NCBI RefSeq assembly: GCF_003334335.1
Contig: NZ_QOWQ01000114.1
Direction: 5' to 3' (one strand)
DNA length: 1,270 bases
DNA from: Escherichia coli
GTDB taxonomy: Bacteria; Pseudomonadota; Gammaproteobacteria; Enterobacterales; Enterobacteriaceae
A program made the position numbers and the translations under genes. Positions 1 to 1,270 of the stretch are shown in pieces (position 1 is the first letter of the stretch; every line of letters starts with the position of its first letter). The notes below the pieces were generated by a model. That model saw nothing but the letters and a program-made list of their open reading frames with translations. It made no database searches and was not told the DNA's origin.

Positions 1-95
1 ACGTTTTTATCCGGAAACTGCTGTCTGGCTTTTTTGATTTCAGAATTAGCCTGACGGGCAATGCTGCGAAGGGCGTTATTATGTTCTATTGTCAT
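1..95 (-). CDS. Hypothetical protein, N-terminal 31 codons only (MTIEHNNALRSIARQANSEIKKARQQFPDKN...); continues past the window start.
   Basis: ATG at 95..93 on the minus strand, preceded by GAGG at 104..101 with a 5-nt spacer. The frame stays open to position 1. Same strand as the upstream genes and 7 nt after the stop of the 250-aa gene. Confidence 0.45.
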   Translation of the reverse strand, partial: MTIEHNNALRSIARQANSEIKKARQQFPDKN

Positions 96-100
96 ATTGG

Positions 101-104
101 CCTC
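101..104 (-). promoter_or_regulatory. Shine-Dalgarno (GAGG) for the downstream partial CDS, overlapping the TGA stop of the 250-aa CDS
   Basis: Minus-strand sequence GTGTGAGGCCAATATG: the stop TGA (105..103) shares GA with GAGG (104..101); a 5-nt spacer leads to the ATG at 95..93. Confidence 0.45.
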
Positions 105-855
105 ACACTTCGAATGCCAGTTGAGGGGTAAAGACGTCCCGTTCAGCGTTGTAATTAAGTGAACTGGCACTGTTGAATGATTCAATGCGTTCCACAAGAA
201 CTTGCGTACGGGTTTCTTTACTTGCGGGAGCATATGGCGAACCTACCCAGGATTTGTCGATGCCTATATTTCTTGCGACGTTCGTGCTGTCTGCAGACGA
301 AAGCGGTACATGAGTAAAAATGTCTTTATTTAACATCCGTAACCCATGAATCTTGGTGATTGGGTAGCCGTACTGATCTACAACATGACGTATAAGATCG
401 CGTAGTTTAGCCCGACACGCTCTCGGTCGTTTTGCATCGTATTCCCCCATCGAGCCGATGCAGACGCGGGGAAACTCATGGCACAGACGAATAAATCGCT
501 CATCTGGTTCGTTCATGTGCCACACCGGAGCACCAATAAATTTACCGTGAGGCCATGCCGCAATCAGGGCGTCATTCTCTTCACTGGTTCCGCCGATAAC
601 ATCCGGGATAACCGCGAATGAGAAACGAGGGTGATTACCCCAGCGTTCAACAAATCTGTAATATTCATTCCAGTCTATGGCCTTGTTTTTTGTCCAGAAT
701 GTGAATGCACCATTATCAAGAGCAAATGATTGGGTGACTTCGGAAGCCAGATCAATCTGAGCTGGATTAGCAAAACTGATGAATGCGTGTCTGCCTTTCC
801 AGGCTTTCAACGCACAGGTATCGGGAGTTATTGGACCACCGTGAAAATGAATCAT
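103..855 (-). CDS. Putative TGT-superfamily transglycosylase, 250 aa: queuine/preQ0 tRNA-ribosyltransferase-like catalytic core without the zinc-binding subdomain; candidate DpdA-like 7-deazaguanine DNA transglycosylase.
   Basis: Complete 753-nt ORF, ATG 855..853 to TGA 105..103, with GGGAGAG at 865..859 upstream. By-eye collinear motif matches to E. coli Tgt as recalled from memory: FALDNGAF (D47) vs ILTDSGGFQ; FSFAVIPD (D85) vs IVMIFDEC; CIGSMGE (132-138) vs AVGGLAVGE; PITKIHGL vs PRYLMGVG; SSADSTNVARNIG (D189, ARNIG 194-198) vs MFDCVMPTRNARNG. No CxCxxC motif follows. Confidence 0.8.
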   Translation of the reverse strand: MIHFHGGPITPDTCALKAWKGRHAFISFANPAQIDLASEVTQSFALDNGAFTFWTKNKAIDWNEYYRFVERWGNHPRFSFAVIPDVIGGTSEENDALIAAWPHGKFIGAPVWHMNEPDERFIRLCHEFPRVCIGSMGEYDAKRPRACRAKLRDLIRHVVDQYGYPITKIHGLRMLNKDIFTHVPLSSADSTNVARNIGIDKSWVGSPYAPASKETRTQVLVERIESFNSASSLNYNAERDVFTPQLAFEV

Positions 856-1010
856 ACACTCTCCCGTTTATTATTTATCTCCTCAGCCAGCCGCTGTGCT
901 TTCAGCGGATTTCGGATAACAGAAAGGCCGGGAAATACCCAGCCTCGCTTTGTAACGGAGTAGACGAAAGTGATCGCGCCTACCCGGATATTATCGTGAG
1001 GATGCTTCAT
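852..1010 (-). CDS. Small hypothetical protein, 52 aa ([52 protein letters not shown]); not on the supplied ORF track.
   Basis: Hand translation of the minus strand: ATG at 1010..1008, TGA at 854..852, no internal stops. GGGGAG at 1024..1019 lies 8 nt upstream of the ATG. The ATG overlaps the upstream stop (ATGA) and the stop overlaps the downstream ATG at 855..853 (ATGA). It exactly fills the gap between the two large ORFs. Confidence 0.55.
859..865 (-). promoter_or_regulatory. Shine-Dalgarno (GGGAGAG) for the 250-aa TGT-like CDS
   Basis: Minus-strand sequence CGGGAGAGTGTATG: purine-rich SD with a 3-5 nt spacer to the ATG at 855..853; it lies inside the 3' end of the 52-aa ORF. Confidence 0.6.
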
Positions 1011-1270
1011 TGCCATTGCTCCCCATATACAAAACCAATTTCAGCCAGTGCCTCGTCCATTTTTTCGATGAACTCCGGCACCATCTCGTCAAAATTCGCC
1101 ATGTACTTTTCATTCCGCTCAATCACGACATAATGCAGGCCTTCACGCTTCATACGCGGGTCATAGTTGGCAAAGTACCAGGCATCTTTTCGCGTCACCC
1201 ACATGCTGTACTGCACCTGGGCCATGTAAGCCGACTTTATGGCCTCGAAACCACCGAGCCGGAACTTCAT
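1007..1270 (-). CDS. Hypothetical protein, C-terminal 87 aa in window; the 5' end may lie beyond the window edge (the ATG at 1268..1270 could be the true start or internal). Function unassigned.
   Basis: Open minus-strand frame across 1270..1010 ending YGEQWQ then TGA at 1009..1007. Its stop overlaps the ATG of the next ORF (ATGA). Same strand and tight spacing as neighbours. No cysteines; acidic C-terminal segment. Confidence 0.6.
1019..1024 (-). promoter_or_regulatory. Shine-Dalgarno (GGGGAG) for the 52-aa ORF
   Basis: Minus-strand sequence TATGGGGAGCAATGGCAATGA: GGGGAG with an 8-nt spacer to the ATG at 1010..1008; embedded in the last codons of the upstream CDS. Confidence 0.45.

Follow-up and report, generated by a model that had tools for sequence, protein, structure and literature searches.

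Phages that carry the DNA-modification gene dpdA differ in how much of the 7-deazaguanine pathway they bring with them. In the survey of Hutinet et al. 2019 (Nat Commun 10:5442; PMC6884629), 'DpdA only' viruses formed the third and largest group (76 of 182 viruses), and these phages were proposed to use host preQ0 or uptake. Supplementary Data 1 of that study lists phage SfI (YP_009147480) as having DpdA and no other pathway gene, and likewise HK106, BTP1, SPN3UB, SEN1, SE131 and 7-11. The same authors noted that gamma-proteobacterial singleton DpdAs group apart, in a cluster specific to their host clade, and might differ in function. Here we describe a lone gene of this kind in a 1,270-base stretch of Escherichia coli contig NZ_QOWQ01000114.1 (assembly GCF_003334335.1), the whole of which we call the window. 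The 250-amino acid product is 99.6% identical to the SfI protein, and nothing substantive differs between the two. We find that the phage probably depends on the 7-deazaguanine precursor pool of its host, because it has no precursor genes of its own, E. coli almost always possesses queC, queD and queE, and other DpdAs acting alone use the host pool. An initial annotation of the window had implied that a lone DpdA is unusual, which the size of the 'DpdA only' group contradicts. As the lone gene of a 99.6% identical protein had been described in 2019, together with the idea that it uses the host pool, the present result is largely confirmatory.

Escherichia phage PhiR5_1 (PV340545.1, 4356-5625) matches the window at 100% identity, and Shigella / Enterobacteria phage SfI (NC_027339, 23417-24686) matches it at 98.9%. 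PhiR5_1, which is the source of the window or equal to it, has a lambda-like siphovirus backbone, whereas SfI is a myovirus. The DpdA of Salmonella phage 7-11 belongs to the same family, shares the DNGAF, PDVI, PVWH, HGLR and SADS motifs and likewise comes from a phage without precursor genes; unlike the window protein, to which it is about 35% identical, it is encoded by a virulent 90-kb podovirus and not by a temperate lambdoid phage. The modification of 7-11 is 2'-deoxy-7-amido-7-deazaguanosine (dADG) at a very low level (50 per 10^6 nt), implying an extra oxidising or hydrating activity. The DpdAs of the cluster B2 mycobacteriophages Rosebush and Rinkes, in which 2'-deoxy-7-cyano-7-deazaguanosine (dPreQ0) replaces about 28% of G, are detectably homologous to the window protein, with all catalytic motifs aligned. 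They differ in having 'DSG' and not 'DNG', in their length of 290-385 amino acids, and in being self-sufficient, since they lie in a complete folE-queC-queD-queE cluster beside a ParB-like gene. The DpdA of the bacterial Dpd system (Salmonella Montevideo, PDB 7UI4) is 413 amino acids long, compared with 250 here, without a match at the sequence level, and requires the ParB-like ATPase DpdB and ATP (PMC10164549). No DpdB-like, DpdC or DpdD-K partner is annotated in PhiR5_1 or SfI. The ParB-like gene of Rinkes (L094 1-1302) and Rosebush (L176 1-792), which is directly upstream of the DpdA cluster and recalls the DpdB of bacterial DpdA, is also missing from both phages. Finally, Cap10 of the type IV cyclic oligonucleotide-based antiphage signaling system (CBASS; PDB 9NTN) shares 10% identity with the window protein and acts on protein-linked 7-amido-7-deazaguanine, partnered by a CD-NTase and the QueC-like Cap9 (bioRxiv 10.1101/2025.04.06.647259).

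The assignment of the open reading frame (ORF) as TGT/DpdA-like, on which the initial annotation was premised, was upheld by profile comparison. It matched phrog_887 ("queuine tRNA-ribosyltransferase") at E 2e-99. Using a family profile of 50 sequences (A1) in hhalign, we obtained matches to the DpdA of phage 7-11 (probability 100%, E 1.7e-44), to that of Rinkes, which lies within a full folE-queC-queD-queE cluster (E 3.9e-15), and to that of Rosebush (E 2.9e-8), and thus significant homology to DpdAs of phages whose 7-deazaguanine DNA has been measured. The ORF and the codons of its principal conserved residues are located as follows.

103-855 (including the stop codon at 103-105), minus strand: TGT/DpdA-like ORF, 250 amino acids
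715-717, minus strand: codon for D47
601-603, minus strand: codon for D85
517-519, minus strand: codon for H113
346-348, minus strand: codon for H170
289-291, minus strand: codon for D189

Five motifs are in register with those of the phage DpdAs (DNGAF/DSGAF, PDVI/LDVI, PVWH, HGLR and SADS/SVDS). Residues D47, H170, S187, D189 and S190 are invariant across the family, while D85, H113 and E116 are nearly so. The three active-site aspartates and the conserved histidine of phage DpdA are present in the alignment to the DSG, LDV, VWH/TVH and VDS motifs of Rinkes and Rosebush, and the protein has a TGT-like (beta/alpha)8 barrel fold. The active site of Salmonella DpdA consists of Asp95, Asp130, His181 and Asp256 (PMC10164549). 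Judged by the order of the motifs, the corresponding residues of the window protein would be an acid/base aspartate, an aspartate and a histidine for base recognition, and a nucleophilic aspartate. The same conserved core was found in 71 distinct lone-gene sequences and in 44 distinct que-linked sequences, and nothing in the lone genes suggests loss of the active-site pocket. The protein has four cysteines (C14, C125, C132 and C147), none of them after the predicted nucleophile Asp189, and ends about 60 residues after the barrel; it lacks the C-terminal zinc-binding subdomain (CxCxxC...H) of canonical tRNA TGT. Sequence comparison thus identifies the gene as a genuine, selected member of the phage DpdA family, which appears to encode a compact, zinc-site-free triose-phosphate isomerase (TIM)-barrel enzyme, a putative DNA guanine transglycosylase.

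The initial annotation reported no 7-deazaguanine precursor gene beside the TGT-like gene, and this is correct for the window. None of the four window products contains the CxxxCxxC motif of QueE, and only the DpdA-like protein has cysteines, with no QueC-type cluster, in agreement with what had been said of these motifs. The absence of precursor genes from the window is nevertheless nearly uninformative, since hardly one additional gene would fit into 1,270 bases. We therefore rely on the complete genomes of PhiR5_1 (50,981 bp) and SfI (38,389 bp), all six frames of which were searched by tblastn and phmmer --max using E. coli MG1655 QueC, QueD, QueE, QueF and FolE, a phage QueD, a phage YhhQ-like protein and five Rinkes pathway proteins. 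No QueC, QueD, QueE, QueF, FolE or YhhQ homolog was detected in either genome (the best E-value, 0.028, is noise), and the deposited annotations of both phages contain no precursor-biosynthesis gene. The absence seen in the window therefore extends to the whole of both phages. Precursor genes were likewise lacking within 10 kb in 79 of the 80 viral loci most closely related to the window gene (63-100% identity, 1.07 Mb of flanks). The sole exception, locus L091, has queD (9639-10004) directly upstream of the DpdA-like gene.

The host, by comparison, is well supplied. Of 5426 complete E. coli genomes, 5425 contained queC, 5422 queE and 5426 queD. There is experimental precedent for DpdAs drawing on such a pool: the 9g DpdA alone in E. 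coli produced dPreQ0 in plasmid DNA, at 0.03-0.3% of G (PMC6884629), and nt-1 DpdA2 alone in E. coli produced dPreQ0 from the host pool, which was lost in a queD deletion mutant (PMC10516641). The DpdA2 of VH7D inserts host preQ1 (PMC10516641).

Relatives of the gene are frequently linked to 7-deazaguanine functions. We examined a second sample of 80 viral loci (L096-L175) around a distant branch of the family, whose members share about 30-37% identity with the window protein and its DNG motif. At least one of YhhQ/VUT-like, QueD, QueE or QueC was encoded beside the gene in 53 of these 80 loci, which ties the family to 7-deazaguanines. YhhQ/VUT-like partners were present in 40 loci, QueD in 13, QueE in 4 and QueC in 2, at median distances from the gene of 61.5, 21, 312.5 and 4.5 bases, respectively, and almost always on the same strand. 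The corresponding count was 1 of the 80 close loci, and zero in PhiR5_1 and SfI. Individual cases include Caulobacter phage DMCA, in which queD abuts the DpdA-like gene, Pseudanabaena phage Pam5, in which the transporter is two genes downstream, and the metagenomic protein P0244 (L095 2840-3847), a QueD::DpdA-like fusion.

Three further observations were made on these partners. The putative transporter that adjoins the DpdA-like gene in the 40 loci (e.g. L097 8532-8993, L098 10687-11217) has queuosine-precursor and preQ0/preQ1 transporters as its best NCBIfam families. This pairing suggests a two-gene 'import and insert' module in phages, with the transporter assignment scoring below the curated NCBIfam cut-offs. 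QueD recurs as the only partner, without QueE, QueC or FolE (L091 9639-10004; L004 7705-8001; DMCA; fused in P0244); by performing the 6-carboxy-tetrahydropterin (CPH4) synthase step, a phage QueD may pull host dihydroneopterin triphosphate (H2NTP) into the preQ0 branch. The 421-amino acid metagenomic protein P0229 combines a DpdA-like domain with a Dam-family adenine methyltransferase domain at its N terminus (TIGR00571, E 5e-76), representing either a true Dam::DpdA-like fusion or a merge produced by gene calling.

Under the host-pool reading, the enzyme would act as follows. After infection or induction, the gene would be transcribed with gam-bet-exo, and its translation would be coupled to that of orf60a. 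By analogy with DpdA and TGT, Asp189 would attack C1' of a target deoxyguanosine and displace guanine, with Asp47 serving as general acid/base and Asp85 and the conserved histidine reading the base edge. A free 7-deazaguanine base, preQ0 or possibly preQ1, would then be attached; the phage making none, this base would be drawn from the pool of the host FolE-QueD-QueE-QueC(-QueF) queuosine pathway. Progeny DNA is predicted to carry 7-deazaguanine marks, at a low level or at specific motifs, that would blunt restriction in the next host. If this is true, a single 750-bp cassette would suffice for a temperate phage to mark its DNA with a 7-deazaguanine, and no cheaper route to such an anti-restriction modification is known.

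Several results weigh against this interpretation. Pfam gave no match for the DpdA-like protein or for the 50 family members, even at E 0.1, and the TGT profile PF01702 was among those that did not match; the protein found no match in NCBIfam, and sequence and profile searches of PDB returned only noise (HipT, GCN4). Comparison by hhalign of the family profile with the single E. coli Tgt sequence was not significant; the connection with canonical TGT is therefore made through the fold and through a chain of phage DpdAs. The 'DSG' motif of TGT, DpdA and Cap10 is 'DNG' here (codons N48-D47, window 712-717) and throughout the family, in which Asn48 is nearly invariant. The predicted isoelectric point, about 7.2, is not notably basic for a DNA-binding enzyme. 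The lone gene of 7-11, the only one of this family put to the test, yields only about 0.02% modified G, as dADG and not dPreQ0, with uncertain benefit, and Orion, which has DpdA only, showed no modification, though its host lacks the pathway. Our literature search found no later paper assaying the enterobacterial temperate-phage clade (SfI, PhiR5_1, BTP1, HK106). Regarding the change in the DNG motif, the serine of DSG contacts the base in TGT and Cap10, and asparagine in its place could tune substrate specificity.

One alternative is that the function of the protein has diverged, such that it exchanges or removes another base, acts as a plain DNA glycosylase, targets tRNA, or acts in the manner of Cap10 on a protein-linked deazaguanine. 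The separate, host-clade-specific clustering of lone DpdAs and the missing Pfam TGT signal are compatible with such a change; Cap10 was the top match, which we count, together with the serine-to-asparagine substitution, only as a hint. We nonetheless consider diverged function unlikely. Family members with the same DNG motif and core adjoin or are fused with QueD, QueE, QueC or YhhQ-like proteins, and the DNA of 7-11, whose DpdA is of the same family, contains dADG. A Cap10-like role is opposed by the genomic setting: there is neither a CD-NTase with an N-terminal Gly-rich tail nor a Cap9 partner, no QueC-like sequence in either phage genome and no PADLOC match, and the genes on either side are exo, orf60a and orf61. 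The window protein also lacks a zinc subdomain, with no cysteine beyond residue 147; the inability of Cap10 to bind nucleic acid (tRNA) has been tied to its having lost the zinc site and a positively charged patch. In a sibling phage, the place of the gene is taken by a DNA methyltransferase. The initial annotation had offered three explanations for the lone gene. Use of the host preQ0 pool is the best supported of these, given the lack of phage precursor genes, the host que genes and the precedents for DpdA acting alone; a substrate other than a 7-deazaguanine is made improbable by the que- and YhhQ-linked relatives and by the dADG of 7-11, and the third, precursor genes outside the window, is refuted for the phage.

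We also regard it as improbable that the gene is intact but silent cargo, giving under normal conditions no modification, or a biologically irrelevant one, because the free preQ0 pool of the host is too small. This explanation would account for the unmodified DNA of Orion, for the trace modification of 7-11 and for the low yield of DpdA acting alone in E. coli, and no more than 100 of 5426 E. coli genomes contained the gene. However, the host of Orion lacks the pathway that E. coli possesses, the catalytic residues are invariant across the 71 distinct lone-gene sequences, and the family is very large (6182 proteins, 906 clusters at 50% identity). Silent cargo is also at odds with the way the gene evolves. 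Against relatives at 80-87% amino-acid identity, the proportion of nonsynonymous differences (pN) was 0.08-0.13. Because synonymous sites are saturated, a proper dN/dS was not computable and we give the ratio to the proportion of synonymous differences (pN/pS) instead, which was about 0.1-0.17; the two most distant comparisons, L082 and L091, were out of codon register and left out. The low pN together with saturated synonymous sites demonstrates strong purifying selection on the DpdA-like gene.

A narrower alternative is that the lone DNG clade of enterobacterial temperate phages has shifted in specificity, either to inserting preQ1 or a different purine analogue of the host at a small number of defined sites, each a motif, or to a Cap10-like activity on protein-linked deazaguanine that interferes with host defence. 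We think this quite unlikely; if it were true, the clade would represent a module of its own for modification or counter-defence, fed by the host, and not a weak copy of a CAjan- or 9g-type DpdA. That precursor genes (folE, queD, queE, queC or an amidotransferase) lie on the same element just outside the window, as they often cluster with dpdA in other phages (Rinkes, Rosebush, and groups 1 and 2 of Hutinet 2019) and as the queD of L091 might suggest, is extremely improbable in view of the complete PhiR5_1 and SfI genomes, with no precursor homolog at E below 0.028 in any frame and none annotated, and of the 79 close loci that lack such genes.

The gene occupies an exchangeable position in the lambdoid genome. 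Homology of the window to lambdoid phages without the DpdA-like gene ends at position 77 and restarts at 845-853, and about 200 Shiga toxin (Stx) and lambdoid phages match the window in two pieces at 39% coverage. Comparison by blastn with loci L010 and L011 delimited the segment concerned.

78-852, no strand: gene-sized mosaic cassette

In other phages, the slot between orf60a and orf61 is filled by orf63 (VT2-Sakai and lambda) or by a Dam-like N6-adenine methyltransferase (PhiR30_1) (L010 1672-2229; L011 1672-1863), and orphan DNA-modification genes may preferentially insert there. In the 100 complete E. coli genomes with the DpdA-like gene (about 2%), which carry the cassette in a prophage, it was always chromosomal, with alleles at least 99% identical. 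The next relatives after the E. coli alleles were in Klebsiella, Cronobacter and Serratia, at 84-90% protein identity, and the lack of intermediate diversity within E. coli suggests that one allele spread recently in this species.

The window contains four closely packed genes on the minus strand and is part of the delayed-early pL (early-left) operon, downstream of gam-bet-exo, of a lambdoid temperate phage of the PhiR5_1/SfI type. Besides the DpdA-like ORF, its features are the following.

1007-1270, minus strand: 3' end of exo (lambda-type exonuclease), C-terminal 87 amino acids; phrog_149 exonuclease, E 4e-21; annotated as exonuclease in PhiR5_1 and SfI
852-1016, minus strand: orf60a/DUF1317, 54 amino acids; phrog_1998, E 5.7e-33; annotated as orf60a/DUF1317 in PhiR5_1 and SfI
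859-865, minus strand: Shine-Dalgarno-like GGGAGAG, read from the sequence, shortly before the ATG of the DpdA-like gene (853-855)
1-95, minus strand: 5' end of orf61, first 31 codons; PhiR5_1 coding sequence 4235-4450, whose full protein matches phrog_303 at E 1.1e-34

The ATG of the DpdA-like gene overlaps the stop codon of orf60a (ATGA, 852-855), which suggests that the two genes are translationally coupled, and orf61 starts 7 bases past the DpdA-like stop codon. The orf60a/DUF1317 gene is a conserved lambdoid gene that is also present in VT2-Sakai and PhiR30_1, both of which lack the DpdA-like gene, and is not specific to DpdA-bearing phages. A scan for a promoter belonging to the cassette itself remained at background level, with no convincing candidate. 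Five terminator-like sites were found in the window, compared with 1.2 expected from shuffles, and the matches were weak. One of them, a hairpin at 924-946 on the minus strand, lies within orf60a, upstream of the DpdA-like gene, and has a 9-bp stem with 6 G-C pairs and a T-rich tail; if it is functional, expression would depend on N antitermination.

The base composition of the window carried no foreign-DNA signature, and an Rfam search of it gave only a chance match to a long noncoding RNA. Plus-strand ORFs antisense to the genes (e.g. 783-1133, 116 amino acids) were set aside as antisense artefacts. A search of the literature on PhiR5_1 and on DpdA in lambdoid prophages yielded nothing relevant. 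Elsewhere in PhiR5_1, the immunity region has an annotated HipA toxin / HipD pair, flanked by kil and cI (L001 7915-9488).

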